A program made the position numbers and the translations under genes. Shown here piece after piece: positions 4,532 through 22,022 of a stretch of DNA of 32,000 nt. The number at the start of each line of letters is the position of its first letter. Position 1 is the stretch's first letter. The stretch is taken from the NCBI RefSeq assembly GCF_900095195.1, contig NZ_LT606950.1:366164-398163 (forward strand), in the 5' to 3' direction. The stretch is from Polynucleobacter necessarius (lineage in GTDB: Bacteria; Pseudomonadota; Gammaproteobacteria; Burkholderiales; Burkholderiaceae). Under the pieces are notes generated by a model. That model made no database searches, was not told where the DNA came from, and worked only from the letters and a program-made list of their open reading frames with translations.

Positions 4532-5050
4532 ATGAGACTTACTACTAAAGGTCGTTTTGCAGTAACCGCGATGATTGATTTGGCTCTGCGCGAGGCGCAC
4601 GGGCCTGTAACGCTTGTCGGAATTAGTCAGCGACAAAAAATTTCACTCTCTTACCTCGAACAGTTATTCGGCAAATTACGTCGATTCAACATCGTGGACA
4701 GTACGCGTGGCCCTGGTGGCGGGTATACGCTCGCTCGCCCATCCAATGAGGTAAGTGTTGCCGACATTGTTGTGGCTGTCGATGAGCCATTGGATGCCAC
4801 TCAGTGTGGCGGAAAAGGAAACTGTCAATCAGAGGAAGATAGTCATGGCTGTTGTATGACACACGATCTGTGGAGCAATCTCAATTTAAAAATGGTTGAG
4901 TATCTCAGCTCGGTGACTCTGAAAGATTTGGTTCAGCAGCAAGAGGGGCGTGGCGTAGTGATTCAGGATATGCGCCAGAAAAAAGTCAAAGTAGAAAGCG
5001 CAAAAGCGGAAAAACTTACTCCAGCTGTTGCTGCGAAAAGGGGCCTGTAA
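4532..5050 (+). CDS. iscR: Fe-S cluster assembly transcriptional regulator IscR (Rrf2 family)
   Basis: MRLTTKGRFAVTAMIDLAL N-terminus. The Cys/His cluster-ligand region is DATQCGGKGNCQSEEDSHGCCMTHDLW. It is the first gene of an isc operon. Confidence 0.9.
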   Translation: MRLTTKGRFAVTAMIDLALREAHGPVTLVGISQRQKISLSYLEQLFGKLRRFNIVDSTRGPGGGYTLARPSNEVSVADIVVAVDEPLDATQCGGKGNCQSEEDSHGCCMTHDLWSNLNLKMVEYLSSVTLKDLVQQQEGRGVVIQDMRQKKVKVESAKAEKLTPAVAAKRGL

Positions 5051-5124
5051 CCAAAGTGCCGCTGGTGAACTCCGTATTTAATTTGGCGCGACAAAGCTAA
5101 CTCTTACATTATTTGAAACACAAT

Positions 5125-6384
5125 ATGAACGCACCAAGAATACTGCCTCAACAACCGGTTCCAATGTTTAGTCCAAAACACTTTCCAGTGTACATGGATT
5201 ATTCAGCAACTACACCGATTGATCCGCGTGTGGTTGACAAGATGTTGCCGTATTTGCGTGAGCAATTTGGCAATGCGGCATCCCGTAGCCATGCCTATGG
5301 TTGGGCTGCAGAAGAGGCTGTTGAGTGGGCGCGTTCAGAAGTGGCTCTACTAGTTCATGCTGATCCAAGAGAAATTATATTTACGAGCGGAGCGACTGAG
5401 AGCATCAACTTAGCTCTAAAGGGTGCAGCCCATTTCTATAAGGATCGTGGCAATCACATTATTACGGTGAAGACTGAGCACAAGGCGACCTTGGATACTT
5501 GTCGCGAACTTGAGCGAGAAGGTTTTGAGGTGACGTATTTAGATGTGTTGCCCAATGGCTTGATTGACTTCGTGCAATTGGAAACCGCAATGAAGCCTGG
5601 CACCATTTTGGCTTCGGTAATGTATGTCAACAACGAAATCGGCGTTGTGCAAGACATTCCACGTATCGGTAAACTCTGCCGCTCACGTGGCGTTATCTTT
5701 CATGTTGACGCAGCGCAAGCTACTGGCAAAGTAGAAATCGATTTAGAAAAAATTAAAGTGGACTTGATGAGCTTTTCAGCGCACAAGACCTATGGTCCTA
5801 AAGGCATTGGCGCCTTATTTGTGCGCCGTAAGCCCCGTATTCGTATTGAGGCCCAGATCCATGGTGGCGGCCATGAGCGCGGTATGCGTTCTGGCACCTT
5901 GGCGGTTCACCAAATTGTGGGTATGGGTGAAGCATTCCGCATTGCGCGTCTCGAGATGGCCGAAGAGAGTAAGCGTATTCGTGCGTTGCGCGACCGCTTG
6001 CTTGATGGTTTAAAAGATATTGAAGAGGTGTATGTGAACGGTGACATGGATAGTCGTGTGCCGCACAACCTCAATATCAGTTTTAACTATGTTGAAGGCG
6101 AATCCATGATGATGGCGCTCAAAGATTTAGCGATCTCATCCGGTTCTGCTTGCACCTCTGCCTCCCTAGAGCCTTCGTACGTTTTGCGCGTGCTCGGTCG
6201 TAACGATGAATTGGCACACAGCTCCATTCGCTTTACCTTGGGTCGCTTTACAACTCAAGAAGAGGTGGACTTCACCATTCAGTTAGTTAAAGACAAGATT
6301 GCGAAATTACGCGAACTTTCTCCACTGTGGGAAATGTACAAAGATGGAATCGACTTAAGCACGATTCAATGGGCTGCACACTAA
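5125..6384 (+). CDS. iscS: cysteine desulfurase IscS
   Basis: [23 protein letters not shown] (PLP Lys) and [17 protein letters not shown] (catalytic Cys). The track starts at TTG 5113; the in-frame ATG at 5125 is preferred. Confidence 0.9.
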
Positions 6385-6416
6385 AAGATATATTGAAAAG
6401 TTAACGAGGAAATACC

Positions 6417-6803
6417 ATGGCATACAGCGAAAAAGTCATTGACCATTATGAAAATCCCCGCAACGTTGGCTCTTTTGAAAAGAGTGACACCAGCGTTGGT
6501 ACCGGCATGGTTGGGGCGCCGGCATGTGGTGACGTGATGAAGCTACAGATTCGTGTGAACGATCAAGGCGTGATTGAGGATGCCAAGTTCAAAACGTATG
6601 GTTGTGGCTCTGCAATTGCCTCATCTTCATTGGTTACTGAATGGGTCAAGGGTAAGACCTTGGATCAAGCATTAGAAATTAAGAACTCTTTAATTGCTGA
6701 AGAGTTAGCATTGCCACCTGTGAAAATTCACTGCTCGATTTTGGCGGAAGATGCAATCAAGGCTGCGGTTGCTGACTATAAAGAAAAATATCCAACCAAA
6801 TAA
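6417..6803 (+). CDS. iscU: Fe-S cluster scaffold IscU
   Basis: 128 aa with GAPACGDVMKLQI, YGCGSAIASSS and IHCSILAEDA. Confidence 0.95.
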   Translation: MAYSEKVIDHYENPRNVGSFEKSDTSVGTGMVGAPACGDVMKLQIRVNDQGVIEDAKFKTYGCGSAIASSSLVTEWVKGKTLDQALEIKNSLIAEELALPPVKIHCSILAEDAIKAAVADYKEKYPTK

Positions 6804-6820
6804 GCAATAACTGAATCATC

Positions 6821-7144
6821 ATGGCAATTACCTTAACTGAAAAAGCAGCAAAACACGTTACTCGCAATCTTGAGAAGCGCGGTAAAGGTTGCGGCCTACG
6901 TTTAGGCGTGCGCACTACGGGTTGTTCAGGCTTAGCGTATCAGCTCGAGTATGTGGATGAACCTGCTGTTGAAGACCAGGTATTTGAGTCAAATGGCGTA
7001 AAAGTATTTGTTGATCCAAAGAGCTTGGCTTACTTAGATGGAACAGAATTGGATTTCGTGCGTGAGGGTTTGAACGAAGGATTTAAGTTTCAAAATCCCA
7101 ACGTAAAAGACGAGTGTGGTTGTGGCGAATCCTTCCGCGTCTGA
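6821..7144 (+). CDS. iscA: Fe-S cluster insertion protein IscA
   Basis: 107 aa with C-terminal ECGCGESF and an internal GCSG motif. Confidence 0.9.
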
Positions 7145-7649
7145 CGATTACTTTCGCTTCTTTGGCCTAAACCAGCAATTCAAAATCGATTTGCCTGCGC
7201 TTGATCAGGCATACCTAACCATCCAAAAAGAAGTGCATCCTGATCGCCATGCACGCGGCAGCAAGTCGGAGCAACGGATAGCAATGCAAATGGCTACATT
7301 AGCCAATACCGCGCACCAAACACTGAAGAATCCTATTCAACGAGGTTTATATCTCTGCCAATTGCATGGTGTAGATGCCACCCTGGAAACCAATACTGCC
7401 ATGCCGGCCGTCTTTCTCATGAAGCAGATGGAATGGCGCGAAAGCCTGGATGAGCAAGCAGAAGATTTGCCGGCCTTAGAAGAATTGATGTCTGAAGTAG
7501 AGCAATCCAAAGAAGATACATTGATGGAAATTGTCCAGGCTATAGACGGCGCTAAAAACTATCAGCGTGCCGCTGAGCTTTTGCGTGGCCTCTTATTTAT
7601 TGATAAGTTTGCTGCTGAGCTTGATGATGCTATTGCAGCCTTAATCTAG
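7116..7649 (+). CDS. hscB: co-chaperone HscB (J-domain)
   Basis: DYFRFFGL plus the HPD motif ([10 protein letters not shown]). There is no in-frame ATG near the 5' end. Candidate GTG starts at 7116 and 7122 overlap the end of iscA, so the start is uncertain. Confidence 0.8.
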
Positions 7650-7671
7650 TCTACCCGTACACTATCGTTCC

Positions 7672-9537
7672 ATGGCACTCCTACAAATTTCTGAACCCGG
7701 TAAGTCGCTTGCGCCCCATCAGCGTCGCATTGCGGTGGGAATCGATTTGGGAACAACGAATTCTTTAGTAGCGATTATTCAAGATGCATTACCAAAAGTG
7801 CTTGCAGACGAGCAAGGACGCGAATTGCTGCCATCAGTGGTGCGGTATTTGCCAAATGGCCACACTCAAGCAGGGTTTGAGGCGCTAGAACATGTGGTGA
7901 GTGATCCTAAGAATACGATTGTTTCCGTAAAGCGCTTTATGGGTCGCGGGCTTACAGATGTGGAGCACATTGAGAACGCACCATACGATTTCGTTGATCA
8001 ACCTGGCATGCTCAAACTACGAACCGTTGTAGGCGATAAAAGTCCAGTCGAAGTGTCGGCCGAAATTTTGGCGCGCTTGCGTCAACTGGCTGAAGATTCG
8101 GTGAATGATGAGATTGTGGGCGCTGTGATTACGGTACCAGCGTATTTTGATGATGCACAACGTCAAGCAACCAAAGATGCAGCAAAGCTGGCTGGAATTG
8201 AAGTATTACGCCTGCTAAATGAGCCAACCGCTGCAGCAATTGCTTACGGTTTAGATAATGCCTCCGAAGGAATCTATGCGGTATATGACTTAGGTGGTGG
8301 CACGTTTGATATCTCAATCCTGCGGATGAGTAGGGGGGTATTTGAAGTTTTTTCCACTGGCGGTGATTCTGCTTTAGGCGGCGATGACTTTGATCATCGT
8401 CTCTACTGTTGGGTAATTGAGCAGGCTAAATTACCACCGCTATCGATTCATGATCAGCGTACCTTGCTTCAAGCGTGTAAACATGCCAAAGAGTTGCTCA
8501 GTCACAACCCCTTAGCGCGTGTGCATGAGACCCTTTCGGATGGTACGGTCGTTAATGTTGGTATTAGTCAGGCCCAGTTTTTTGAGATTACTCAGAACTT
8601 GGTAAATAAAACCCTTATAGCCTGTAAAAAAGCATTGCGAGATGCTGGCCTTAAGGCTGAAGAGGTAAAAGGTGTAGTCATGGTTGGCGGATCGACACGG
8701 ATGCCAAACGTGCAACGTGCTGTTGGCGAATTGTTTGGAACCCAACCCTTAAATAATTTAAATCCAGATCAAGTGGTGGCTCTTGGTGCAGCAATGCAAG
8801 CGGATTTGTTGGCAGGTAATCAAGGTAAAGATGATGAGTGGTTATTACTCGATGTCATTCCACTCTCCCTCGGTATTGAAACCATGGGCGGATTGGTTGA
8901 AAAAATCATTCCACGTAATACGCCGATTCCAGTTGCTAGAGCGCAGGATTTCACAACCTTTAAGGATGGGCAAACTGCGCTAGCAATACAAGTTGTCCAG
9001 GGTGAGCGTGAGTTAGTGCAGAACTGCCGATCTCTTGGTCGTTTTGAGTTGCGCGGTATTCCACCGATGGTGGCAGGTGCCGCTCGCATTCGAGTGACTT
9101 TTCAGGTTGACACTGATGGGGTGCTATCGGTCAGCGCTACTGAGCAAGGTTCTGGAGTCCAAGCTTTCATCGATATCAAGCCTTCGTATGGTTTAACGGA
9201 TGCTGAAATCACGCGCATGCTACAAGATGGATTTGCCTCCGCTAAAGAAGATCTGTTGGCGCGGTCATTGCGTGAGGAGCAAGTAAGCGCCCAACGTTTA
9301 TTGGATGCTGTGCAAACAGCTTTAGACAGTGATCGCCATTTGCTGACTCTAGAGGAGCAGGCGGCTATTGATCAAGAGATGGCGAAGCTGCAAAAGATTT
9401 TGTTGGAAGAGACCGATAGTTCTGTGGTCCGGAAAGCGGTTGATCATGCTGCAAAAGCAACCGATGCGTTTGCGCAAAAACGCATGAACTCCAGTATTCA
9501 AAAGGCACTATCAGGCAAGAATGTTGCTGAGATATAG
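7672..9537 (+). CDS. hscA: Fe-S protein assembly chaperone HscA (Hsp70 family)
   Basis: 621 aa with [17 protein letters not shown] and the [16 protein letters not shown] Hsp70 signatures, in isc operon context. Confidence 0.9.
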
Positions 9538-9563
9538 AGTATTTCATAAAAATAGATAACACC

Positions 9564-9902
9564 ATGACGCAAATTGTTGTTGTTCCCCACAGTGAATATT
9601 GCCCAGAAGGCGCAGTCGTTGAAGCATCACCAGGCACTTCAATTTGCGAGGCATTGCTCGAGAACGATATTCCGATTGAGCATGCTTGCGATATGGTTTG
9701 TGCCTGCACTACCTGTCACGTGATCGTCAAAGAGGGTTACCAAAGCCTGAATCCCCCCGATGAAAATGAGGAAGACATGCTGGATCGGGCTTGGGGTTTA
9801 AATCCCCAATCCCGTCTTTCTTGCCAAGCCATTGTGGCCAAAGAGGACCTCGTGATTGAAATTCCCAAGTACTCGATTAATCACGCCAAGGAAAATCACT
9901 AA
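9564..9902 (+). CDS. fdx: ISC-type [2Fe-2S] ferredoxin
   Basis: 112 aa with the cysteine pattern CDMVCACTTCHV...LSCQ typical of adrenodoxin-like Fdx. It is the last gene of the isc operon. Confidence 0.9.
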   Translation: MTQIVVVPHSEYCPEGAVVEASPGTSICEALLENDIPIEHACDMVCACTTCHVIVKEGYQSLNPPDENEEDMLDRAWGLNPQSRLSCQAIVAKEDLVIEIPKYSINHAKENH

Positions 9903-10040
9903 AACAGATCAATCCAGGCACTAATTTAGCGCATTGCGTTCAAATGAATGCATTGATGGTCAGCGCCATGGATGGTAACCACTAATATGAAGTTGTTCAT
10001 TCTGTAGTGTGTTTTCCGTAGTACCTCCATAAATCTTTTT

Positions 10041-10070
10041 AAGCCATCCTTCGGGGTGGCTTTTCTTTTT
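10041..10070 (+). terminator. rho-independent terminator closing the isc operon
   Basis: AAGCCATCC-TTCG-GGGTGGCTT (9-bp stem with one G.T pair) followed by TTCTTTTT. Confidence 0.7.
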
Positions 10071-10193
10071 GGTGGTGATTAACAATCCACAGATTGATCT
10101 AATGAACTAATCATCTTTCGAATTCTGAATTTCTTAGTTCACTTACAAGACTGCAATTCCTACACTGAATGCAACAGAACTTCAGGAATCAAC

Positions 10194-10484
10194 ATGACGG
10201 TATTGATAGTGGGTGGTGATCGTATTTCGAGTATCATGAAATATTTAGCCCAGAACGGCTTTAATGACATTTTGCATTGGGATGCAAGACGAAATGGTAA
10301 TACCCATCGGTTTATGCCACAGAGTGCGCGTTTAGTTGTGATTTTGATTAATTATCTTAATCACGGCATGGCTAAAAAGATTAAGCGTGATGCGGAAGAG
10401 TTGGGCGTGCCTGTACTTTTTAGTAAAAATTCTGCCTCTGAGCTAAGTCAGATATTTCGGGCAGATAAGCACCTCATTCATTAG
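10194..10484 (+). CDS. small conserved protein, DUF2325-like
   Basis: 96-aa ORF. The pattern LIVGGD...H(x)...RLVVILINYLNHGMAKKIK...GVPVLF fits my memory of the DUF2325 family (Rossmann-like beta-alpha unit with conserved His). The family assignment is from memory only. Confidence 0.5.
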   Translation: MTVLIVGGDRISSIMKYLAQNGFNDILHWDARRNGNTHRFMPQSARLVVILINYLNHGMAKKIKRDAEELGVPVLFSKNSASELSQIFRADKHLIH

Positions 10485-10507
10485 GTTTTCATCCGCCCGG
10501 CAAACTT

Positions 10508-11869
10508 TTATTGCGAAACTGCCTCGCGAATCATGCCAGCAGCAACAGTATGATTTGTGGCTTCGTCAATCAAGATAAACGCACCAGTACGCGGAGATTG
10601 GTCGAATAAGTCCGCAACAATCGGCTTTTGCAAAATAAAATCCACTCGCCCAATTTCATTGGTAGAAAGCGCATGGACATCACTGGCATGCGATAAGGTC
10701 TGAACATCCAAGACTTGTTGGATATTTTTAACCTTTGCGCCAACCGTATTGGTGGTGTGACGCAGCGCGTATTTACGACTCAGAGAGAGTGGCTCGCTAT
10801 CTAACCAGCATAAATCAGCGGAAAGTTGTTTGCTAAGTACGGGCGGATTGGTATCTTCAGCGCTAATAAATAAAGAGCCACGCGATACGTCAATATCCTC
10901 AGCCAATTGAATTGCTGCGGCTTCGCCAGTTTGAGCAGATTCCACAGCATTATTACCTTTGCTGCCTGAGCCATTCCCGAGATAAATCTCAGTAACCGTA
11001 GCTTCCGAGCCGCCTGGTAATACCCTAATCTTTTGGCCTTTGCGAACGCTGCCGAATTTAATCTCGCCGAGATAGCCACGGAAATCATCTGAAGCGCATC
11101 CATTCTGACGTGCTACATATTGCACGGAGAAGCGTAAGGCTAATTTTTCGGATTCAGGGCTGGTATCAAGACCTTCGAGTAATTCCAGCAGAGTAGAGCC
11201 ATTATACCAAGGGGTGTGTTGGCTTCTGGTAACAACATTGGCCCCAAATAAGACTGAGATGGGAATTAATGTTGGAGTGGGCAAACTAATTTTGCTGGCG
11301 AGGTCTTCAATGGCGGATTTGACGGTGTTGTAAACCCTCTCATCAAATTCAAACAAGTCCATCTTGTTGATGGCAAATGCCACGTGACGCAAGCCTAATA
11401 GATGCACAATCGCTGCATGACGCTTAGTTTGGGCGAGTAATGTCGCTGGGCTAGTGGTGAGATCAACGCGAATCGCATTTACTAATATGACTGCTACATC
11501 AGATTGGGATGCTCCCGTAACCAAATTGCGAGTGTACTGTTCGTGACCAGGAGCGTCAGCCGTAATAAATTTACGCTTCGGTGTTGAAAAATAGCGATAC
11601 GCTACATCAATGGTGATACCTTGTTCACGCTCAGCTTCCAGGCCATCAGTTAAAAGCGCCAAATCTACCACAGCATCAGAGGAGGTAACGCGCGCATGTT
11701 TCGTCTTAGAAATGGACTCAAGTTGGTCTACCAAAATCGATTTCGTGTCATAAAGTAGACGACCAATTAAAGTGCTCCTGCCATCATCAACGCTACCAGC
11801 GGTAATGAAGCGCACTACGTTTTGATGCGCATTTTGATATGCCGTACTGATCGATGAATGCTTGTACAT
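10508..11869 (-). CDS. cysN: sulfate adenylyltransferase subunit 1 (CysN)-like GTPase; ORF open but orphaned and probably non-functional
   Basis: This is residues 111-563 of the 563-aa track ORF, starting at an internal ATG (complement of 11867-11869). It has RFITAGSVDDG-R-STLIGRLL, DAPGHEQYTRN and NKMD. The P-loop Lys is Arg (AGG, complement of 11777-11779). The partner gene cysD is absent. Confidence 0.6.
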   Translation of the reverse strand: MYKHSSISTAYQNAHQNVVRFITAGSVDDGRSTLIGRLLYDTKSILVDQLESISKTKHARVTSSDAVVDLALLTDGLEAEREQGITIDVAYRYFSTPKRKFITADAPGHEQYTRNLVTGASQSDVAVILVNAIRVDLTTSPATLLAQTKRHAAIVHLLGLRHVAFAINKMDLFEFDERVYNTVKSAIEDLASKISLPTPTLIPISVLFGANVVTRSQHTPWYNGSTLLELLEGLDTSPESEKLALRFSVQYVARQNGCASDDFRGYLGEIKFGSVRKGQKIRVLPGGSEATVTEIYLGNGSGSKGNNAVESAQTGEAAAIQLAEDIDVSRGSLFISAEDTNPPVLSKQLSADLCWLDSEPLSLSRKYALRHTTNTVGAKVKNIQQVLDVQTLSHASDVHALSTNEIGRVDFILQKPIVADLFDQSPRTGAFILIDEATNHTVAAGMIREAVSQ

Positions 11870-12199
11870 CGTTCTCTTGAGGGTAGACTTTTTCGATTGC
11901 AACGCCATAGTGGTCTTCAGTTGTTTTGACCATATCGACGGTTTCTTGATGCAAGCGACCCGTCGCCAAGGTAAAAACTTGATATTGGCATTGGCCTTGG
12001 TAATCGCATCGGTAACGACCATGTCTTCAGCAGCTAGGCTGGTTGCAAAACGAACATCTGAAAACCGTTTAGATATATCGGACAGGCGCTTCTTTAAAAC
12101 AGTTGATTTATCAGCAAGTTCAGTTGGCGTAAGAGTGCTTGGTGGAATGGACCAAAAAGTCGGTTTTTCGAGGGAATTTTGAAGGTTTTGCTGGGTCAT
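11870..12199 (-). pseudogene. cysH: remnant of PAPS/APS reductase gene cysH (about 110 5' codons, frameshifted), fused to cysN
   Basis: Frame 0 gives RFATSLAAEDMVVTDAITKANANIK. A +1 frame then gives VFTLATGRLHQETVDMVKTTEDHYGVAIEKVYPQENDVQAFIDQYG, which are classic CysH motifs. The rest of cysH is missing. Confidence 0.8.
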
Positions 12200-12276
12200 T
12201 TACATACTCCGAGAGGGGGCAAATAGGCTGCCTCCAGCTCTGACACAGCAGTTTATTGGCTATTTTTATTACTTAC

Positions 12277-12311
12277 AAATATATAAAAGTCATCTTTTTA
12301 TATATAAAAGT
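12277..12311. repeat. AT-rich direct/inverted repeat in the former cysH promoter region
   Basis: ATATATAAAAGT occurs at 12279-12290 and again at 12300-12311, a 21-bp period. The spacer carries CTTTTTATATAT, the near reverse complement of the first copy. The repeat lies 80-110 nt upstream of the cysH remnant start. Confidence 0.5.
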
Positions 12312-12348
12312 AATGGAAACGAGTGATTTACCTGCCTAAAACTACTTT

Positions 12349-13265
12349 TTAATCCAAATCAATATCAGACTCAGGCTTGAGTGCCGCTTTTACTTTGGCT
12401 TCATCAAGCTTGGGTGAGCATAACTCGATGAATTCATAGGCAAATCCGCGCAAAAAGGTGCCTTTTCGTAGTGCAATCCGAGTGGTGTTGTCCTCAAATA
12501 GTTGGCCGACATCCAATAGGCTCAATTTTGTGTCTCGATCAGTTTGATATGCCATGGATGCGATGATGCCAATCCCCGGGCCTAATTCAACGTAAGTTTT
12601 TATAACGTCAGCATCAAGTGCGGACATTACGATATCGGGCGTAATTCCAGCTTTAGCAAAAGTTTTATCAACCAATTTTCTGCCAGTGAATCCTTCGTGA
12701 TAGGTAACGATCGGAAATTCAGCAAGATCTTCAAGAGTTAAATTTTGCTTACCTTCAAGAAGGCGGTCTTTCGGCACTACTGCAGTGTGGTGCCATGAAT
12801 AGTACGGAAACGTAACGAGCTCAGGAATGCCTTCTAAAGCTTCGGTGGCAATACCAATATCCGCCTGACCCTCTAGTAATAACTCCACAATTTCTTGTGG
12901 GCTGCCTTAATGAAGTGCTAGATGAACGCCCGGGAACTTCTTCTTAAATTGACTGACAACATTTGGCAGGGCATAGCGCGCTTGTGTATGGGTCGTTGCA
13001 GTTGTGAGTTGGCCTTTATCTGCCTGACTAAATTGAGCACCCAGCTGTTTAATGTTTTTAGTATCTAGCAAAATACGCGCGACGATCGTTAAGAGTTCTT
13101 TGCCAGGTTCGGTAAGGCCAAGAAGGCGCTTGCCTTTGCGGACAAAGAGCTCAATGCCCAATTCATCCTCGAGATCCAAGATGTGCTTACTTACCCCGGA
13201 TTGAGAGGTGGCAAGTGCATTGCCAACTTCAGTCATAATGATGATAATTCGATACGTAAATTCAA
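12349..13265 (-). pseudogene. cysB: LysR-type cysteine-regulon activator CysB, disrupted by an in-frame stop
   Basis: Track ORFs 12907-13407 and 12349-12888 are in the same frame. They read ...THTQARYALPNVVSQFKKKFPGVHLALH-TAA-GSPQEIVELLLEGQADIGIATEAL. The TAA (complement of 12907-12909) sits where CysB proteins have Gln. The first about 20 codons of the HTH region look shortened and frameshifted (..NLRIELSSL / IIIIMTEVGNALATSQSGVSKH). Confidence 0.85.
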
Positions 13266-13786
13266 ACCAAAGGACAAAAATACGATCAATCTTGGCAAGT
13301 ACACCATCAGTTGATTGATCCTCGGTAACAATATCCAACTCATGTGGGCGTGCACAGGCGAGAACGGAAGCGCCTTGAGAAATCGACTCTGATTGATCGT
13401 GCTTCAATTTGTCTTTACTAACTTCAATAACTCATGGACTTTATCTGCAATTTCTTCTTTGCTAGGACGCTCTTTGCGATTCTTGACTTGTAGGCCAAAG
13501 GCAACGTTATCAAATACTGTCATGTGCTTAAACAGTGCATAGTGCTGGATACAAACCCCACTTGACGATCTCGTACGGGGGTAGTGGAAGTGTCTACGCC
13601 ATCCAAAATAATGGTTCCACTATCAGGTGTTTCGAGGCCCGCAATAATACGCAACAGAGTGGTTTTCCAGCAGCCAGATGGACCTAGGAGGGCGACTAGT
13701 TCTCCGGAGGGAAAATCCAGAGAGACGTTATTTAGCGCAACAAAGTTCCCGAAGGTTTTGTTGATATTTTTTACTTCAATACTCAT
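13266..13786 (-). pseudogene. cysA: sulfate/thiosulfate ABC transporter ATPase CysA, frameshifted and internally deleted
   Basis: The N-terminus with Walker A is intact ([18 protein letters not shown]). At about 13545 VGFV-SSTMH replaces VGFVFQHYALF (a T is missing). The next frame gives [22 protein letters not shown]...LLKLVKTN*. It then jumps to KHDQSES...ARPHELDIV. The ABC signature and Walker B are absent. About 520 nt remain versus about 1050 expected. Confidence 0.8.
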
Positions 13787-14072
13787 AGTGGTCCTTCAAT
13801 TGCTGGGGCTGCGTTTGTTTCGAATTTCAGACGCCATTCCACATAGGTTTTGGCGGCTAGAGTTAATAGTGCTAATAGGGCTAATAAGGACGCCACAGCA
13901 ACTGCAGCGACAAAGTTGTATTCGTTATAGAGAATTTCAACCTGCAACGGAATGGTGTTGGTATAGCCGCGAATGTGTCCCGAAACGACCGAGACGGCGC
14001 CAAACTCACCCATGGCACGAGCGTTACAAAGGATGACGCCATAAAGTAGGCCCCACTTAATATTGGGCAAAA
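13783..14072 (-). pseudogene. cysW: 3' third of sulfate permease gene cysW (5' two-thirds and cysT deleted)
   Basis: [68 protein letters not shown] is nearly identical to the C-terminus I remember for CysW. Homology stops at about 14072. The stop overlaps the cysA ATG (ATGA, 13783-13786). Confidence 0.8.
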
Positions 14073-15423
14073 GCTTTGGATTTGAACAATTCATTCCTAA
14101 TTCATTTCTGAATGATTTGTCTAATCCAAGCAACGACCCATTAGTGAATCAAGTATTTCTGAATGAAGTGCCAGTTACTAAAAGTCAGAATACAGCGCTT
14201 GATCCATTATTGGTTCGAAAAGATTTTCCGATTCTTTCTGAGCGAGTCAATGGTCGTCAATTAGTCTTGTTTGATAACGTTGCGACAACCCAAAAGCCCC
14301 AAGCAGTGATTGATCGTATTAGCTATTTTTATGAGCACGAGAATCCCAATATTCACCGTGCTGCCCATGAATTAGCTGCGCGCGCAATCGATGCTTATGA
14401 AGGTGCTCGTGAAAAGGTAAGAGTATTTCTCAACGCTAAATCGGTTAATGAAATCGTTTTTGTGCGTGGTACGACCGAAGCTATCAACTTGGTATCACAA
14501 AGTTGGGGCCGCCAAAACCTCAAAGAGGGCGATGAAATCATTCTCAGTAATCTTGAGCATCACGCAAACATTGTTCCTTGGCAGTTGTTGGCCAAAGAAA
14601 AAGGATTAAGTATTCGTGTGATACCCGTTAATGATGATGGCGAGTTGCTGTTGGATGAGTATCAGAAGCTGTTCAATAGTCGCACTAAGCTTGTGAGTTT
14701 TACCCACGTATCCAATGCATTGGGTACGATTACGCCAGCTAAGAAGATTATTGAAATTGCGCATGCCGCTGGAGTGAGGGTGCTGCTGGACGGTGCCCAA
14801 TCCATTTCGCATATGAGAGTGGATCTGCAAGACCTCAATCCGGACTGGTTTGTATTTTCTGGACACAGGGCTTTTGGACCAACGGGTATTGGCGCTCTGT
14901 ATGGCAAAGAAGATTTGCTTAATGCCACTCAGCCATGGCAAGGTGGCGGCAATATGATTCAAGATGTGACGTTTGAGCACACCAAGTTTCATGATGCTCC
15001 AAGCCGTTTTGAGGCGGGTACAGGCAATATTGCGGATGCGGTAGGTTTTGGTGCCGCCAGTGATTACGTCAACTCTGTTGGCATAGATTTAATTGATCAA
15101 TACGAGCATCAACTCTTGTTATATGCAACCCGCTTACTCAAAGATGTTCCCGGTATTCGATTGATTGGGACTGCACAACATAAGGCTAGCGTTTTATCTA
15201 GCGTTTTATCGTTTGTGATTCCAGGAATCAAGACTGAGGATATTGGTGCGGCGTTAAATAAAGAGGGTATTGCAGTTCGCTCAGGACACCACTGTGCGCA
15301 GCCTATCTTGCGTCGCATGGGGGTAGAAACGACCGTTAGACCATCCTTAGCTTTTTACAATACTTGCAAGAGGTGGATAGGATGATTGCTGTATTGCATC
15401 GTATTCGCTCCCAGCATAGATAA
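14063..15423 (+). pseudogene. SufS/CsdA-family cysteine desulfurase, inactivated
   Basis: Class-V aminotransferase motifs are present: NVATTQKP, HHANIVPW and RSGHHCAQP. The PLP-lysine motif SGHK is SGHR (AGG 14867-14869). A 12-bp tandem duplication is at 15188-15211. A 1-nt deletion near 15366-15371 ends the ORF at 15385. The shifted frame continues (C)EEVDRMIAVLHRIRSQHR to TAA 15421-15423. There is no in-frame ATG at the 5' end. Confidence 0.75.
15188..15211 (+). repeat. in-frame 12-bp tandem duplication (AGCGTTTTATCT/AGCGTTTTATCG) inside the sufS-like gene
   Basis: Read directly from the sequence. It encodes SVLS-SVLS where family members have a single copy before SF(V/I)xxG. Confidence 0.85.
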
Positions 15424-15449
15424 CCATCAGTTTGGTTAGAGTAGAAATA

Positions 15450-15475
15450 AAAAGGCCACTGAAAAGTGGCCTTTT
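15450..15475 (+). terminator. rho-independent terminator after the sufS-like gene
   Basis: AAAAGGCCACT-GAAA-AGTGGCCTTTT, a perfect 11-bp stem with a T-tail. Confidence 0.75.
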
Positions 15476-15481
15476 AATCGT

Positions 15482-15735
15482 ATGAAAATGAATTATGCAA
15501 AGGGTTCTTCAAGCTCGGCATATGCGCTTGCAGGGGTTGGGTTAATTGGTTTATCAGTGCATCTTGGCTCAAAGAATGTTTTTTAGCAAACTTATATCTC
15601 CAAGGAGGCAGTCTATTAGACTACCTGCTAGGTTTAGGCATCGTTGGCAGTTTTGTTTTGGGAGTGGTGTTGATTGCCGGGCATGTGAGCAAGGAAGGTG
15701 TGGCTGAAAATTTTTACGAACATACACCATATTAA
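15482..15735 (+). pseudogene. candidate small two-TM membrane protein gene split by a frameshift in a T6 run
   Basis: ATG 15482 gives MKMNYAKGSSSSAYALAGVGLIGLSVHLGSKNVF, then TAG at 15584-15586. The -1 frame continues LANLYLQGGSLLDYLLGLGIVGSFVLGVVLIAGHVSKEGVAENFYEHTPY to TAA 15733-15735. One extra T in the run 15579-15584 would join them. It is flanked by terminators. No homolog recognised. Confidence 0.3.
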
Positions 15736-15804: not shown

Positions 15805-16581
15805 TTATTTTTCTACGAATGCACGTTCAAATACGTAGTCACCCAGCTGTCCAAGACTTGGTGAGACCTTAAAGCCTTTGGCATCAAGCATTTTTGACGT
15901 TTCTTTTAGCATGGATGGGCTGCCGCAAATCATGGCACGGTCAACTTCAGGATCAAGAGGCGGCAAGCCGATGTCTTTAAATAGTTGACCTGATTCAATA
16001 GCGGTAGTTAAGCGACCAGTGTGCTTAAAGGCTTCACGGGTAACGGTTGGGTGGTAGATGAGTTTTTCACGGATCAATTCGCCTAGATATTCATCTTGCG
16101 TTAATTCATTTTTAATGTAATCAGCATAGGCTAGCTCGCTAACTAAGCGAACCCCATGAATCAATACAACTTCCTCAAACTTTTCGTAAGTCTCTGGATC
16201 GCGAATAATGCTCATAAAGGGCGCAAGTCCAGTGCCAGTGCTAAATAAGTAAAGGTGTTTACCTGGGTTGAGGTCGTCAAGCACTAAAGTGCCAACGGAC
16301 TTTTCGCTCACCAAAATGGGGTCACCCACTTGGATTTTTTGTAGGCGTGAGGTTAGGGGGCCATCTTGAACCTTAATGCTTAAGAATTCCAAATGCTCTT
16401 CATAGTTCGGGCTAGCGACGCTGTAAGCGCGAACGAGTGGTTTGCCTTCAACCTCAAGACCAATCATTAAGAAGTGGCCACTACGGAAGCGTAAGCCTTT
16501 GTTACGGGTGGTGGTGAAGCTAAATAGGGTGTCGTTCCAGTGGTGGACGGTTAAAACGGTTTCGGTGTGATATGCGGCCAT
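15805..16581 (-). CDS. fpr: ferredoxin-NADP+ reductase (bacterial Fpr type)
   Basis: 258 aa with RAYSVAS (FAD-binding RxYS), LFSTGTGLAPF (NADP-binding GTG) and the C-terminal ERAFVEK typical of Fpr. Confidence 0.85.
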   Translation of the reverse strand: MAAYHTETVLTVHHWNDTLFSFTTTRNKGLRFRSGHFLMIGLEVEGKPLVRAYSVASPNYEEHLEFLSIKVQDGPLTSRLQKIQVGDPILVSEKSVGTLVLDDLNPGKHLYLFSTGTGLAPFMSIIRDPETYEKFEEVVLIHGVRLVSELAYADYIKNELTQDEYLGELIREKLIYHPTVTREAFKHTGRLTTAIESGQLFKDIGLPPLDPEVDRAMICGSPSMLKETSKMLDAKGFKVSPSLGQLGDYVFERAFVEK

Positions 16582-16735
16582 AACAAGCTTTTAATAAATT
16601 TGCAAAACCTTGATTATCCTCAAAATCTGCTCATTTTTTGAGGGTTTGATGGATTAACTTTTCATAACCAATGCACTTTTGGTAATAAGGCAGGTCTTTC
16701 TGCCGATTGAGCCCATCTCCCACTATGATTAAGGG

Positions 16736-17215
16736 ATGACTCGTGCTCAATACCTCTATCTCTCGTTCATTAGTCTTAGCTTGGTTATCTTTGCAGTGAT
16801 ATTGCAACAGGTTGGCTACCAAGGCGTCAGCTTTTTGCCTTGTCCATTGTGCATCTTGCAAAGAGTTGGGTATCTGGGCATTGGCATTTCTTGTTTATTT
16901 GCTGCGAGCTTCCATTCCTCGCGGAAGTTCTTTCACATCGTCGCCATTTTATCGGCTATATATGGCCTTGGCGTAGCTGCTCGTCATGTATGGTTACTAT
17001 CTCATCCTGGGGCTTCTTGTGGCATTGATCCCCTTGAGACATGGATTAATCAGTTTCAATTAGCTCAAGGTCTTCCATGGCTATTTAAGGCTGATGATCT
17101 GTGCTCTGCAAAACTTCCCGCAATTCTCGGGTTACAAGTTCCTGAATGGTCTTTGCTTTGGTTTACTTTTTTATTGTTGATCTTGCTAGTTACTTTTCTG
17201 AGAAGAGCAAAGTAG
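16736..17215 (+). CDS. dsbB: disulfide bond formation protein DsbB
   Basis: 159 aa with four hydrophobic segments, CPLCILQR (the CxxC pair) in the first periplasmic loop, and a second Cys pair (GASCG ... DDLCS). Confidence 0.8.
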   Translation: MTRAQYLYLSFISLSLVIFAVILQQVGYQGVSFLPCPLCILQRVGYLGIGISCLFAASFHSSRKFFHIVAILSAIYGLGVAARHVWLLSHPGASCGIDPLETWINQFQLAQGLPWLFKADDLCSAKLPAILGLQVPEWSLLWFTFLLLILLVTFLRRAK

Positions 17216-17251
17216 TGCGGATAAAAAATCTCACACCATGGGTCGTGGGAC

Positions 17252-18097
17252 TCAGCCTCCAATATGCAGGCAGACCCGTTGTTGGGTTTGCTGCACTGGT
17301 GGATTTGTTTTTGTCAGGGCTGGAGCTGTCAAAGTGGCTGGACTTCCGTAGAACTCTCCCTGTACCAAAATCCTCGAGTCATGAAATGCAAGTTGATCTA
17401 GATTCTTGGTAATCACAATATTAGCTTCACTGCTTGTACTCTTAGGCTGTTCAATATCGCTATAGAGATTCGCACCAGATTGCAAAAGGTGTCGTGCAAT
17501 TTTGATGTAATGAACGTGCGCTCTTTCGGATGAGCCCTGAAGATCGGTAATCGAATCTATATTGATAGCCACTTTTAATGAATTGAGTCGATTGTTTTGC
17601 AAAACAAAGTGGAGGCGTTTGGTATCTTTTACTAATGAAATTGGCAATTCAATCACGATTCGGTTTGGTGAGAACCCGAGAGCATCAACCACTTTTCTAA
17701 ATGCTGAGCCATGATTGTCATCTATGGCAGAGATGAGGCCCTCATGAACATTCAGAAATAAAAGAGCGTCATCAATGCCATGTAGCGTGAAGTTTAATAA
17801 ATGAATTGTTCGACACAGGCGGTCTAGACTGGTAATTTCGTTATCATCGACTGGTTTGGAAAAAAGGTCCCCAGGCTTTATTTGATTGCCATAGGCATCA
17901 ATGCAGCGAACAAATGCTTCATAGGCGTATGGGTTAACCAGATCTGTGGAGCGGAAGATTGGTTGAAATACGCTAGAAAGCGTTAAATTTTGCCAGCGAG
18001 CGCTGATCTCGCCAGCACCATTTAAAAATAATGGACGATTAACGTTATTACTTTTAAGGCCATCAATAAACAATTGGGTTTTGCTAGGAACTCTCAT
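17252..18097 (-). CDS. stand-alone EAL-domain protein with degenerate catalytic residues
   Basis: 281 aa, collinear with the EAL-domain consensus. Retained or altered positions: FQPIF...YEAFVR (EAL becomes EAF), FLNVHEG (Asn kept), IVIELPIS (ELTE becomes ELPI), VAINIDSI (DDFG becomes IDSI), YIKIA (KxD becomes KIA), VITKNLD (AEGVE lost), VQGEFYGSP (QGxxxxxP kept). Confidence 0.6.
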   Translation of the reverse strand: MRVPSKTQLFIDGLKSNNVNRPLFLNGAGEISARWQNLTLSSVFQPIFRSTDLVNPYAYEAFVRCIDAYGNQIKPGDLFSKPVDDNEITSLDRLCRTIHLLNFTLHGIDDALLFLNVHEGLISAIDDNHGSAFRKVVDALGFSPNRIVIELPISLVKDTKRLHFVLQNNRLNSLKVAINIDSITDLQGSSERAHVHYIKIARHLLQSGANLYSDIEQPKSTSSEANIVITKNLDQLAFHDSRILVQGEFYGSPATLTAPALTKTNPPVQQTQQRVCLHIGG

Positions 18098-18115
18098 TTG
18101 ATGGCCGATACCTTT

Positions 18116-19152
18116 CTATCGTTTCTTATTGGCAAATACATCAATCGCGATTTGATCGTAAATATCGCCGTCATCAAATTGTTCTTTTTGAGCCTTTTTC
18201 CAGCCACCAAAAACGGCATCGACAGTAAATGTTTTTACGGGCGGGAAGTTGCCACCATATTTTTTCGTAATTGCGGGAGTAGGGTTATTTGGGCGGAAGT
18301 AGTGTTTAGCAATAATCTCTTGCCCATTTTCTGTGAACAAGAAATCTAGATACGCTTTTGATAGTTTCTCGGTACTATGCTTTTTGGCATATTTTTCAAC
18401 AACCGCCACAGGAGCTGGTGCTTCGATCATGATCGATGGATACACCACATCAAATTTTCCTGCACCAACTTCTTTATTGATCAGCTCAGCCTCATTTTCA
18501 AAGGTGATGAGAGCGTCGCCAATATCACGCTGGGTGAAGGTGGTCGTTGCGCCTCTGCCACCACCAATCGAGGATTGGTACATTTGTAAAGAGGTCGCGC
18601 ACAAACTCTTTTGCTTGTTTCTCGCTCTTGGTCTTCTGGAGCGCATAGCCATATGCTGTTAAATAGGTATAGCGACCATTTCCAGAAGTTTTAGGATTCG
18701 GAATAATGACTTGTGTGCAGGCTTGGTTAAGCCTGACCAATCTTTAATATTTTTTGGATTCCCTTTGCGCACCAAAAAGACGGTTACAGAAGAGTAGGGT
18801 GCAGATTGCTTCGGAAACGCGTTGCGCCAATTTGGATTCACTAAATTGCCACGTCCAACCAAGATATCGATATCTGGCGATTGATTCATGGTGACAACAT
18901 CGGCCTCAAGACCGCCAATAATTGCGCCAGCTTGTTTGCTGGACCCGCCATGGGATTGATTGAGGTTGGAGCTGTTCCGGTTTTGGCTTTCCATTCGGCA
19001 GCAAATACTGGGTTAATGTCTTTGTAGAGTTCGCGAGAAACGTCGTATGAAACGTTCAAAATCGTATTGGGGTTTTTGGTTTGTGCAAAAGCACTGGCTC
19101 CGATTAGGGCACAGATTGCAAAAAGACTGCTGGTTTTAGTAGTGAATTTCAT
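18116..19152 (-). pseudogene. sbp: periplasmic sulfate-binding protein Sbp/CysP, at least 3 frameshifts
   Basis: Four successive track ORFs in different frames tile one Sbp. They are: signal peptide + ILNVSYDVSRELYKDINPVFAAEWKAKTG; NQSHGGSSKQAGAIIGGLEADVVTMNQSPDIDIL...FLVRKGNPKNIKDW; TQVIIPNPKTSGNGRYTYLTAYGYAL; GGGRGATTTFTQRDIGDALITFENEA...FGGWKKAQKEQF. The frame switches lie near 18970, 18718 and 18565. Confidence 0.9.
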
Positions 19153-19386
19153 GATGTTCCAATGGGTTTATTAAAAGTGAAATCTACTAAATAGTAGCTT
19201 AATATTGTCAAACCGACTTGGGAATCAAGAACATTTGCTAAGTAATCCTGCTCTAAGAATATTCAGTTAAGGTTTGGGGTGTGTTAATAGCGTTTTTGGT
19301 TATTAGCTTATTCATAGAGCTTCTTTTACAAAGGAATTCGTCTCGCCTAAGATGTAGGCACTTATGACCCTCCATAATTAGGAATT

Positions 19387-20362
19387 TTGATGACCTACTT
19401 CACTGATAACTCCCAAGCTATTTGTCGCACACTGCTAGTGAGATTAAATCGCGTTACTGACGGCACAAAGGCTACGGTGCTGGCAAAAATTGAAGGCCGC
19501 AATCCAGCTTACTCCGTGAAATGTCGTATTGGTGTGGCGATGATTAACGATGCTCAAGAGAAGGGTCTTCTCGGCCCTGGCAAGGAAATCGTAGAGCCAA
19601 CATCGGGTAATAGGGGTATTGCGCTGGCTTTCGTTGCCGCAGCGCGTGGCATCCCGCTTACGCTCACTATGCCAGAAACAATGAGCTTGGAGCGTCGCAA
19701 ACTCCTGACAGCATTAGGCGCCAAGATCGTGTTAACTGAAAGTCCGAAAGGGATGAATGGTGCCGTTGCCAAGGCAAAAGAAATTGCGGAATCGGATCCC
19801 AATAAATATGTTTTGCTTCAGCAATTTAGCAATCCCTCGAATCCAGCGATTCATGAAAAAACGACTGGTCCTGAAATTTGGGAAGATACAGACGGCAAGA
19901 TCGATGTCTTCGTTGCTGGTGTTGGAACAGGCGGTACTATTTCTGGTGTGGGCCGTTACATCAAAAATGAAAAGAAAAAGACTATTGAAGTGGTTGCAGT
20001 GGAGCCAACTGCAAGTCCAGTAATTACGCAAAAACTGAATGGCGAAGAAATTAAACCCGCACCACATAAGATCCAAGGTATCGGCGCCGGGTTTATCCCC
20101 GACAACATCGATTTATCGGTGGTGGATAAGGTTGAGCAAGTCAGCAATGAAGGGGCCATTGAGTTTGCTCGCCGCATCGCCAAAGAAGAAGGTATTTGGT
20201 GGGCATCTCTTGTGGTGCCGCCACCGCCGTCGCAGTCCGCCTAGCCAAAAAGCCTGAGTATGCTACAAAACTATTGTGGTTGTTCTGCCAGATGCGGCTG
20301 AGCGCTACTTGAGCTCCGCACTATTTGAAGGCGTCTTTGATGAAAAAGGATTGCCCGCATAA
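19387..20362 (+). pseudogene. cysK: cysteine synthase A (O-acetylserine sulfhydrylase) CysK, frameshifted twice near the 3' end
   Basis: The PLP-Lys motif [11 protein letters not shown] and [10 protein letters not shown] are present. The substrate loop TSGNTG is TSGNRG (AGG 19612-19614). IGxTPLV is ICRTLLV. A base is missing in the T-run 20195-20197 and another in the A-run 20267-20270. The corrected frames read [29 protein letters not shown]-(T)IVVVLPDAAERYLSSALFEGVFDEKGLPA to TAA 20360-20362. Confidence 0.85.
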
Positions 20363-20387
20363 CTTAACCTCAGTTATTCCAGCGAAA

Positions 20388-20416
20388 TAAAAAGGCACCA
20401 AGCGGTGCCTTTTTAT
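20388..20416. terminator. bidirectional rho-independent terminator between cysK and lysS
   Basis: AAAAAGGCACC-AAGC-GGTGCCTTTTT, a perfect stem flanked by A and T runs. A second imperfect hairpin follows at 20422-20454 (ATCAGAATCAGAT / ATCTATTCTGAT). Confidence 0.75.
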
Positions 20417-20465
20417 TTCTCATCAGAATCAGATTAATTCGGATCTATTCTGATCTTTAGCTTCT

Positions 20466-22022
20466 TTACTCTTCCTCGCGACGCAAATGAGGGAAGAGAA
20501 TCACATCGCGAATATTGGGTGCATCGGTTAGCAGCATAACTAAGCGGTCAATGCCAATACCACAACCACCAGTAGGAGGCATGCCGTATTCGAGGGCGCG
20601 AATGAAGTCGTGATCGAAATACATGGCCTCTTCATCACCTGTTTCTTTTTGCTCAACTTGCTTGCGGAAGCGATTGGCTTGATCTTCAGCATCATTGAGC
20701 TCTGAGAAGCCGTTGGCTATCTCGCGTCCGGTAATAAAGAGCTCAAAGCGCTCGGTAATGCCTGGGCGTGTATCAGACTCTCTGGCTAGTGGGCTTGCTT
20801 CGATAGGGTAGTCAATGATGTATGTAGGCACCCAAAGGTGCTCCCCAGCAACCAATTCAAATAAGGCTAATTGCAAAGCACCGATACCCGTGTTCTTGAG
20901 CGTTGGAGAATCTGGGTTCTCGCCACCTTTTTTCAATTCAGCACGAATGAACGCAGCATCTTCTAACTGAGCAGCTTCATAGTTTTTACCAGATTGAGCG
21001 CAATATTTCAGAATCGCTTCATTGATGGTGAGGCGTTGGAAAGGCTTGCTTAAATCGAGTTTACGACCTTGGTGGGTCAAGACAGCAGTGCCTTGCGCGT
21101 CAATCGCTGCAGCGCGAATCAGCCCTTCCGTGAAATCCATTAACCAGCGGTAATCCGTATAGGCCGCATAAAGCTCCATCATCGTAAATTCGGGGTTGTG
21201 GCACGGGCTGACACCTTCATTACGGAAGTTGCGGTTGATTTCAAAGACACGCTCAAAGCCACCAACAACTAGACGCTTAAGATATAGCTCTGGGGCAATG
21301 CGCAAGAACATTTGCATGTCGAGCGCATTGTGATGCGTAATGAACGGTTTTGCTGCTGCGCCACCAGGAATCGGGTGGAGCATCGGTGTTTCAACTTCCA
21401 TAAAGTCAGCATCAAGCATATGGCGACGGAGTGATGCGATGGCTTTACTGCGGGCCTTAAAAGTCTCGCGACTTTCTGGATTAACAATCAAATCCACATA
21501 GCGTTGGCGATATTTTGTTTCGAGATCGGAGAGGCCGTGGAACTTGTCTGGTAATGGACGCAATGATTTGCTAAGTAATCGCAACTGATTGCATTCAACG
21601 GAGAGTTCACCCTTATTGGTCTTAAAGAGGTTGCCCTCAGCAGAGATAAAGTCACCCATATCCCAGTGCTTAAAGGCGCCATGCGTATCCGCACCGGTTA
21701 ATTCATCGTTTATGTAGAACTGAATTTGGCCGCTACGATCTTGAATCGTCGCAAAACTGGTTTTACCCATGACACGTTTCAGAACCATACGGCCAGCTAC
21801 TTTGACATGAATCTTTTTGGCAGCCAATTCTTCTTTGGTCAGGCTGTCATAGTGTGCATGTAAGTCAGCGGCCAGATGGGTGGGCACGAAGTCATTTGGA
21901 AACGCAACGCCGTTTTGGCGCAACTTAGAAAGTTTTTCGCGACGTTCAGCAATGATGTGATTCTCATCAACGGCTTCTGTGGCTGGAGGTAAATTCGTTT
22001 TATCGTTCATAAGGTTTGACAT
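20466..22022 (-). CDS. lysS: lysyl-tRNA synthetase (class II)
   Basis: 518 aa with [20 protein letters not shown] (motif 2) and [15 protein letters not shown] (motif 3). Its ATG overlaps the prfB stop by 1 nt (TAATG). Confidence 0.9.

Follow-up and report, generated by a model that had tools for sequence, protein, structure and literature searches.

Does a reading frame that runs unbroken through parts of two genes encode one protein, or is it what was left when the DNA between them disappeared? This question is raised by an open reading frame (ORF) of 563 codons at 10508..12199 on the minus strand (-) of a 32,000-nucleotide stretch of the Polynucleobacter necessarius contig NZ_LT606950.1. 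We call this whole stretch the window, and positions refer to it unless a relative is named. In the ORF, a 5' piece of cysH is joined to the body of cysN. An earlier analysis made from the letters alone, here called the sequence-only reading, took the ORF for a deletion scar that has lost cysD. Our comparison with relatives confirms that observation and supports the interpretation as a deletion scar. Very probably the ORF is non-functional: two lesions cancel each other in frame and have left a fortuitous cysH'-'cysN ORF in the course of the loss of sulfate assimilation.

The cysH remnant and the deletion junction

Relatives for the comparison were obtained by a scan of one genome per species and by look-ups of individual homologues. 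The closest relatives of the CysN part are Polynucleobacter loci, and all of its closest homologues come from this genus. Three loci carry an intact operon in the order cysH-cysD-cysN, as the sequence-only reading had assumed: L001/L086 (a Polynucleobacter metagenome-assembled genome), L082, and L084 (Polynucleobacter sp. MWH-UH25E, complete genome). In these operons cysH encodes 242-251 amino acids (aa), cysD 307 aa and cysN 444-448 aa, and the stop codon of cysD overlaps the ATG of cysN (TGATG). The window shares its upstream gene order, cysW-cysA-cysB-cysH, with L001/L086, and its downstream order, fdx-hscA followed by the rest of the isc operon, with L082, L083 and L084. The locus thus shows syntenic homology to intact genes that is broken by mapped lesions, as is expected of a pseudogene or deletion scar.

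The ORF starts at the old cysH ATG at 12199, and its codons 1-74 (11978..12199, -) are a cysH remnant in its own frame, as seen by tblastn, Pfam and NCBIfam. These residues include FATSLAAEDMVVTD, and residues 1-76 of the L001 CysH match 12199..11972 with 79% identity in tblastn; the CysH-like start that had been assigned to codons 1-75 is thereby recovered. Residues 68-122 of the same protein match 11999..11835 in another frame. Taken together, the two CysH pieces reach a tblastn E-value of 8e-55, and CysN one of 0, so the resemblance is not a matter of chance. A three-frame translation of the 5' region gives MTQQNL...FATSLAAEDMVVTDAITKANANIK in the ORF frame, followed by FLPWRRVACIKK..., while the CysH continuation VFTLATGRLHQETVDMVKTTEDHYGVAIEKVYPQENDVQAFIDQYGI is readable in a frame different from that of the ORF. 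The later CysH motifs, VFTLATGRLHQETVDM...AFIDQYGI, likewise occur only in another frame of the same strand, as had been noticed before.

The cause of the frame change is a 1-bp deletion in cysH codon 75, located between 11977 and 11978 (11977..11978, -) by pairwise alignment with L001. The window reads AAG-TTTTTAC where L001 has AAGCTTTTTAC (AAG-TTTTT versus AAGCTTTTT), and position 4483 of L001 is left unmatched. The following 139 nt of cysH (codons 75-121; 11839..11977, -) are out of frame in the ORF, which reads them as 46 codons, FLPWRRVAC...SSISTA. Their true cysH reading is FTLATGRLHQETVDM...AFIDQYG. Pfam finds only CysN-type GTPase domains in the whole ORF (residues 127-323 and 459-558) and no domain in its first 120 residues. 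After correction of the frameshift, the 5' fragment matches positions 4-68 of the 175 in the Pfam PAPS_reduct profile and NCBIfam models of 3'-phosphoadenosine 5'-phosphosulfate (PAPS)/adenosine 5'-phosphosulfate (APS) reductase. The CysH remnant thus has neither an uninterrupted frame nor a complete PAPS_reduct domain with the C-terminal catalytic cysteine motif, and residues 123-251 of CysH have no tblastn match anywhere in the window.

The region in front of the remnant is better preserved. A Shine-Dalgarno-like GGAG, read from the sequence and kept in L001, lies at 12207..12210 (-), 8-11 nt upstream of the old cysH ATG. The intergenic DNA upstream (12322..12190) has 87% identity to L001, against about 78% in coding DNA. 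An Rfam scan of 9800..12500 gave sub-threshold chance matches only. A sigma-70 promoter scan of 9900..12450 found no sites, a result that says nothing on a CysB-dependent promoter.

The junction itself, ...CAGTACGGCAT joined to ATCAAAATGCGCATCAAAAC..., lies at 11838..11839 (-), as mapped by blastn against L001, L081, L084 and L085. The cysH homology stops at 11839 (L001 4622, L084 8637), and the cysN homology begins at 11838 (L081 466, L084 10017, L085 498), which is cysN nucleotide 17. The sequence-only reading was right that cysH passes into cysN here; the alignment puts the change slightly further 3' than its estimate of about 11850-11870. The missing DNA measures 1,379 bp in L084 coordinates (8638..10016), in agreement with the estimated loss of about 1.4 kb. 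It begins at the third base of cysH codon 121 and takes in the remainder of that gene, the spacer, the entire cysD and bases 1-16 of cysN. To the 3' half of cysH and the whole of cysD, whose loss had been deduced already, the first five codons of cysN must therefore be added. Alignment with an intact operon, which had been proposed as the way to find the end points and any microhomology, shows no microhomology of at least 3 nt at the junction but only the dinucleotide AT on both sides. A mechanism such as strand slippage or recombination between cysH/cysD paralogues was considered and could not be assigned, as microhomology is lacking and the right end lies in cysN and not in cysD.

In the intact operon cysH and cysN stand in the same frame, with their starts 1,698 nt apart in L084. 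The two losses together remove 1,379 + 1 = 1,380 nt, or 3 x 460, and the cysH ATG therefore reads into cysN. Neither lesion alone would bring the cysH ATG into the cysN frame; the loss of one base pair offsets the 3n+2 length of the large deletion. When the same 1-bp shift is applied to cysH of L001, L084 and L082, each shows two stops in the 46-codon stretch, in which the window has none. The differences between the window and the relatives here leave the protein read in the cysH frame unchanged (TTA versus TTG, and GTG AAG versus GTC AAA, for instance), and they would thus have been inherited as silent variation. A rough prior for an open frame is 1/3 (in frame) times about e^-2 (no stop), that is a few per cent, which is unremarkable in a pseudogene-rich genome. 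These results support chance as the origin of the open frame, as had been claimed, with the difference that both deletions are needed and not the large one alone.

The CysN part and the possible nature of the ORF

The cysN remnant (10508..11838, -) extends from nucleotide 17, in codon 6, to the TAA stop at 10510..10508, as delimited by blastn, Pfam, TIGR02034 and 1ZUN. Its DNA is 85-86% identical to the three closest loci, L081, L084 and L085, and its protein 89-92% identical to Polynucleobacter CysN. Residues 121-563 of the ORF align end to end with CysN. Pfam detects GTP_EFTU (E = 1.5e-31) and GTP-eEF1A_C (E = 6.3e-25) in this part, a full-length translational-GTPase-like fold. The CysN model TIGR02034 is matched at its profile positions 2-406 of 406 with 471.6 bits (cut-off 336), and chain B of PDB entry 1ZUN aligns over residues 19-432 with E = 8e-107. 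The CysN equivalog model NF003478 gives 488 bits, below its cut-off of 590. What a working cysN has at its 5' end is missing: its own start codon is gone with nucleotides 1-16, and so is the adjacent, translationally coupled cysD. The CysD sequences of L001 (full length) and L081 (partial) find nothing in the 32-kb window at E <= 1 in tblastn. A cysD next to the ORF, which the sequence-only reading had named as one of two observations that would speak against it, is thus not present there.

The remnant also differs from working CysN proteins inside its conserved core. At 11777..11779 (-) the P-loop codon is AGG, which places Arg where Lys is expected (GSVDDGRST versus GSVDDGKST), and the remnant thus has no intact G1/P-loop GxxxxGK[ST]. 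The lysine is found in all 85 motif matches from the 86 loci compared (44-90% identity to the query). It is also present in 1ZUN_B and in 126 of 128 motif-bearing proteins, and the two proteins with Arg are the window's own products. Nine positions that are invariant in 120 homologues are substituted, namely the P-loop lysine and eight others, among them G5 SAL to SVL and LVDA to LVNA; the next highest count in any other sequence is five. CysN also differs in 5.75% of the columns that are invariant in the homologue clusters, compared with 3.2% in HscA, 2.1% in LysS and 1.2% in Fdx from this genome (pooled Fisher p = 0.0055), in a comparison in which the number and diversity of the reference sequences differ per protein. 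Judged from these changes, CysN is probably inactive but only lightly decayed, and the light decay suggests that its loss was relatively recent.

The databases hold two products of this locus. By exact look-up, the 563-aa sequence occurs on one contig only, an NCBI record of 1,550,368 bp. The only other database product is a 453-aa version (P0126; starting MYKHSSISTAYQNAHQNVV...), which is found on the same contig and is present in NCBI, UniRef and nr. Its start is an internal ATG at 11867..11869 (-), that is ATG 11869, inside the out-of-frame cysH debris; the product there begins MYKHSSISTAYQNAH..., and a weak purine stretch, AAGAGAA, lies upstream. The deposited annotation apparently treats the scar as a protein-coding cysN and not as a pseudogene. 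A literature search, which did not extend to the primary P. necessarius genome paper (PMC3831957), found no paper that discusses the cysH-cysN scar locus.

We propose the following history. The ancestor would have possessed a sulfate-activation and reduction operon of cysH, encoding APS/PAPS reductase, and of cysD and cysN, each encoding one of the two ATP sulfurylase subunits. This operon would have been struck twice, independently: by the loss of a single base in cysH codon 75, and by the 1,379-bp deletion, with which the catalytic C-terminal half of CysH, the whole of CysD and the CysN start codon disappeared. The old cysH ATG would then read through 46 nonsense codons into cysN and so create the 563-codon ORF. 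Without CysD, CysN is unable to make APS, and its decay has begun, as in the change of the P-loop lysine to arginine. The scar is one of at least seven lesions by which an entire island for sulfate uptake and assimilation (cysW, cysA, cysB, cysH, cysD, cysN) is inactivated. We infer the absence of product activity, as well as the order and timing of the lesions. Transcription and translation from the cysH leader are possible, but the activator gene cysB is dead, and any product would lack CysD, the catalytic half of CysH and the P-loop lysine.

Several observations weigh against a dead gene. The CysN part runs through 443 codons without stop or frameshift at about 90% identity to functional homologues, and its G3 DxPGH (DAPGHEQY) and G4 NKxD (NKMD) motifs are present. 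The intact GGAG and ATG before the ORF, together with the conserved upstream regulatory DNA, make transcription and translation possible. The ratio of nonsynonymous to synonymous changes (N:S) in cysN is 31:41 on the window lineage versus 5:43 on the sister lineage (p = 1e-4), and a similar excess is seen in lysS, fpr, dsbB and fdx as controls (92:260 versus 16:147), in a three-taxon design that is weakened by gene trees differing between cysN and the controls (nucleotide identities). These counts were dropped as a test of relaxed selection on cysN because the control genes behave alike; the nonsynonymous excess on the window lineage is a genome-wide effect and not one of cysN alone. Finally, the search for CysD covered the window, and a second cysD or cysDN could lie elsewhere in the 1.55-Mb genome. 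One rival idea is that the CysN part continues to be produced, from the cysH ATG as the 563-aa chimera or from the internal ATG as the 453-aa protein of the public record, and is kept for a CysD-independent role, such as that of a regulatory or moonlighting GTPase-like protein. The unbroken codons, the G3 and G4 motifs, the start region and an N:S no worse than that of housekeeping genes in the same genome all agree with it. We nevertheless regard it as very unlikely. The otherwise universal Walker-A/P-loop lysine is arginine here alone, and in P-loop nucleoside triphosphatases a change of this lysine to arginine normally cripples nucleotide binding or hydrolysis. The SVL and LVNA changes fall on positions invariant in 120 homologues, the adjoining activator gene cysB is itself a pseudogene, and the architecture is seen in none of the best 120 of 8,000 homologues. 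CysN is not known to have a role that does not need CysD. A stronger version is less likely still: the second lesion would have been favoured by selection for bringing CysN back into translation from the cysH start, and the chimera or the 453-aa product would be expressed in the symbiont as a CysD-independent, GTPase-impaired CysN-like protein with a new role.

The same homologue search bears on a natural, conserved fusion of a CysH domain with CysN, the other observation that had been named as speaking against a scar. Fusions of CysN are known, since CysN-CysC of the NodQ type exists, and the ORF partly matches its model NF004035 (profile positions 10-435 of 632); the score of 516 bits is, however, below the cut-off of 715, and a kinase domain is absent. 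The whole ORF was searched against a collection of 5.8 billion proteins. The best 120 of the 8,000 scored homologues are all stand-alone CysN proteins of 442-454 aa that cover at most 79% of the ORF, in its CysN part only, and none of these 120 reaches over the N-terminal 120 residues. Among them there is thus no in-frame CysH-N/CysN fusion from a related genome. Of the N-terminal residues, 74 are in-frame cysH without the catalytic C-terminal half and 46 are out-of-frame cysH, and with 46 out-of-frame codons the ORF cannot be a conserved architecture. A natural fusion is therefore extremely improbable. It is somewhat less far-fetched, though still very unlikely, that the 1.38-kb gap, the 1-bp frameshift or both are artefacts of assembly or sequencing in an organism with an intact cysHDN. 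Sequencing errors often take the form of single-base indels, and the junction is known from a single copy: exact and degenerate junction patterns have no match in public metagenome contigs, which thus supply no independent copy of the allele. On the other hand, the sequence at the junction is unique and contains no repeat on which an assembly might collapse, and the contig is a replicon-sized record of 1.55 Mb. Given six or more additional independent lesions in the neighbouring cysB, cysA and cysW, besides a 5.7-kb deletion, real decay is far likelier than a series of artefacts. Were the 1-bp change an error, cysH and cysD would be destroyed all the same by the 1,379-bp deletion. A deletion scar is thus the reading that we retain.

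Decayed neighbours and a second deletion

Next to the scar lies a cysB/cbl pseudogene (12349..13257, -), which has lost its first ~28 codons and contains an in-frame stop (HLALH*GSPQE), as seen in tblastn and in the ORF list. Residues 29-330 of the L001 CysB match it in one frame with 89% identity, with the stop inside the match. The gene is split into two ORF pieces, and NCBIfam assigns it to the CysB family. It is followed by a cysA pseudogene (13219..13786, -) with three deletions according to tblastn and the L001 segment map: one of 1 bp at 13550/13549, an internal one of ~400 bp and a third of 236 bp. Its pieces lie in three frames in tblastn, and the 236-bp deletion also takes the start of cysB. 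Of cysW only codons 197-291 remain (13786..14070, -). This remnant is 96% identical to residues 197-291 of the L001 CysW and matches positions 179-259 of 261 in TIGR02140.

A second deletion junction is found by blastn at 14066..14067. Window 13432..14067 corresponds to L086 4063..4699 and window 14066..15522 to L086 10448..11892; compared with L086, 5,748 bp (4700..10447) are lost. In L086 this DNA holds the 5' part of cysW, cysT, sbp, a hydrolase gene and a Hexapep (cysE-like) gene, as well as an SrpI-like encapsulin shell gene and the first 149 codons of its cargo gene. At the junction the cysW remnant stands head-to-head with codon 150 of this cargo gene, which encodes a cysteine desulfurase (family 2A encapsulin cargo). 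What is left of it is a 440-aa ORF (14063..15385, +), which corresponds to the C-terminal 75% of the cargo enzyme (804.9 bits with NF041166, over profile positions 213-611 of 623); homologues in Polynucleobacter have 583-602 aa. With these losses the encapsulin system is gone, and an untargeted, startless catalytic domain remains.

Three further loci of the window may also be broken genes, as far as profile matches tell. A second sbp/cysP copy for a sulfate/thiosulfate-binding protein (18116..18994, -) is split into two ORFs, which match positions 43-130 and 179-315 of TIGR00971; it is probably a further sulfate-uptake pseudogene. A cysK-like ORF of 285 aa (19387..20244, +) matches positions 2-256 of 298 in the cysteine synthase A profile and may be truncated at its 3' end. 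A 147-aa ORF (29683..30126, -) matches the first 107 of 314 positions of the class I Glu/Gln tRNA-synthetase catalytic domain and may be a remnant of a gluQ-like gene.

The interval between dsbB and lysS (15805..22022) varies among strains. The two genes are adjacent in L084, and ~7 kb of taurine/sulfonate-utilisation genes follow dsbB in L086; in the window an EAL-like ORF, the broken sbp and cysK lie between them. In gene trees, cysN of the window is nearest to L081, L084 and L085, in conflict with the trees of lysS, fpr and fdx, which suggests that the cys island may have been exchanged among strains. On the other side of the scar, a 52-nt block at 10018..10069 (+) is 98% identical to L081, compared with ~85% in neighbouring coding DNA. 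The block proved to hold nothing more than an ordinary intrinsic terminator downstream of fdx (stem-loop 10041..10062 and a T-run).

Host-restricted lineage and comparison with known systems

The replicon that carries the scar has 1.55 Mb. The Euplotes endosymbiont P. necessarius has a genome of ~1.56 Mb with many pseudogenes, and free-living strains have 2.0-2.3 Mb (PMC5018217; see also PMC11253213). A symbiotic, host-restricted origin of the present Polynucleobacter is thus likely. The scar, the broken cysB, cysA, cysW and sbp and the deleted cysT, cysD and encapsulin genes together mean that sulfate uptake and activation were abandoned, a loss that fits dependence on the reduced sulfur of a host. 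We infer reductive evolution in a host-restricted Polynucleobacter that is fed reduced sulfur by its host.

The scar is an ordinary pseudogene, a known kind of feature that results from ordinary gene decay in a small Polynucleobacter genome. It matters for annotation: automated metabolic reconstruction could wrongly credit this genome with an ATP-sulfurylase subunit, and the 563-aa ORF could be mistaken for a new fusion. The locus also illustrates cleanly how a pseudogene can be masked when two independent lesions cancel in frame.

Compared with CysN, the GTPase subunit of the heterodimeric ATP sulfurylase CysDN (1ZUN chain B, TIGR02034), residues 121-563 of the ORF are alike throughout. Unlike a CysN that works within CysDN, the window copy lacks its own start, the first five codons and the partner cysD, and it carries the P-loop Arg and the G5 SVL; it is a remnant and not a working member of this family. 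Likeness to CysH, the thioredoxin-dependent APS/PAPS reductase (PF01507, TIGR02055), is confined to the N-terminal nucleotide-binding part of the domain, where the first 120 codons, after correction of the frameshift, are 79-80% identical to relatives. The CysH remnant is frameshifted, and the C-terminal half, which in the relatives holds the cysteine motifs (CCGARK, CEPC and ECGLH in L084), is deleted. With CysN-CysC (NodQ-type, NF004035) the ORF has the CysN GTPase core in common, but it has no APS-kinase domain, and its additional 120 N-terminal residues are cysH debris.

A further parallel is found in the pseudogenes and fortuitous chimeric ORFs of recently host-restricted bacteria, such as the endosymbiotic P. 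necessarius of Euplotes; the likeness lies in the small replicon, in clustered disabling deletions and frameshifts in a dispensable pathway and in a genome-wide rise of nonsynonymous change. Reduced, pseudogene-rich genomes of symbiotic Polynucleobacter have been published (PMC5018217, PMC11253213), and the present locus matches them. From the pseudogenes of other host-restricted bacteria it does not differ in kind; particular to it are two lesions that cancel in frame and a scar that is apparently annotated as a protein.

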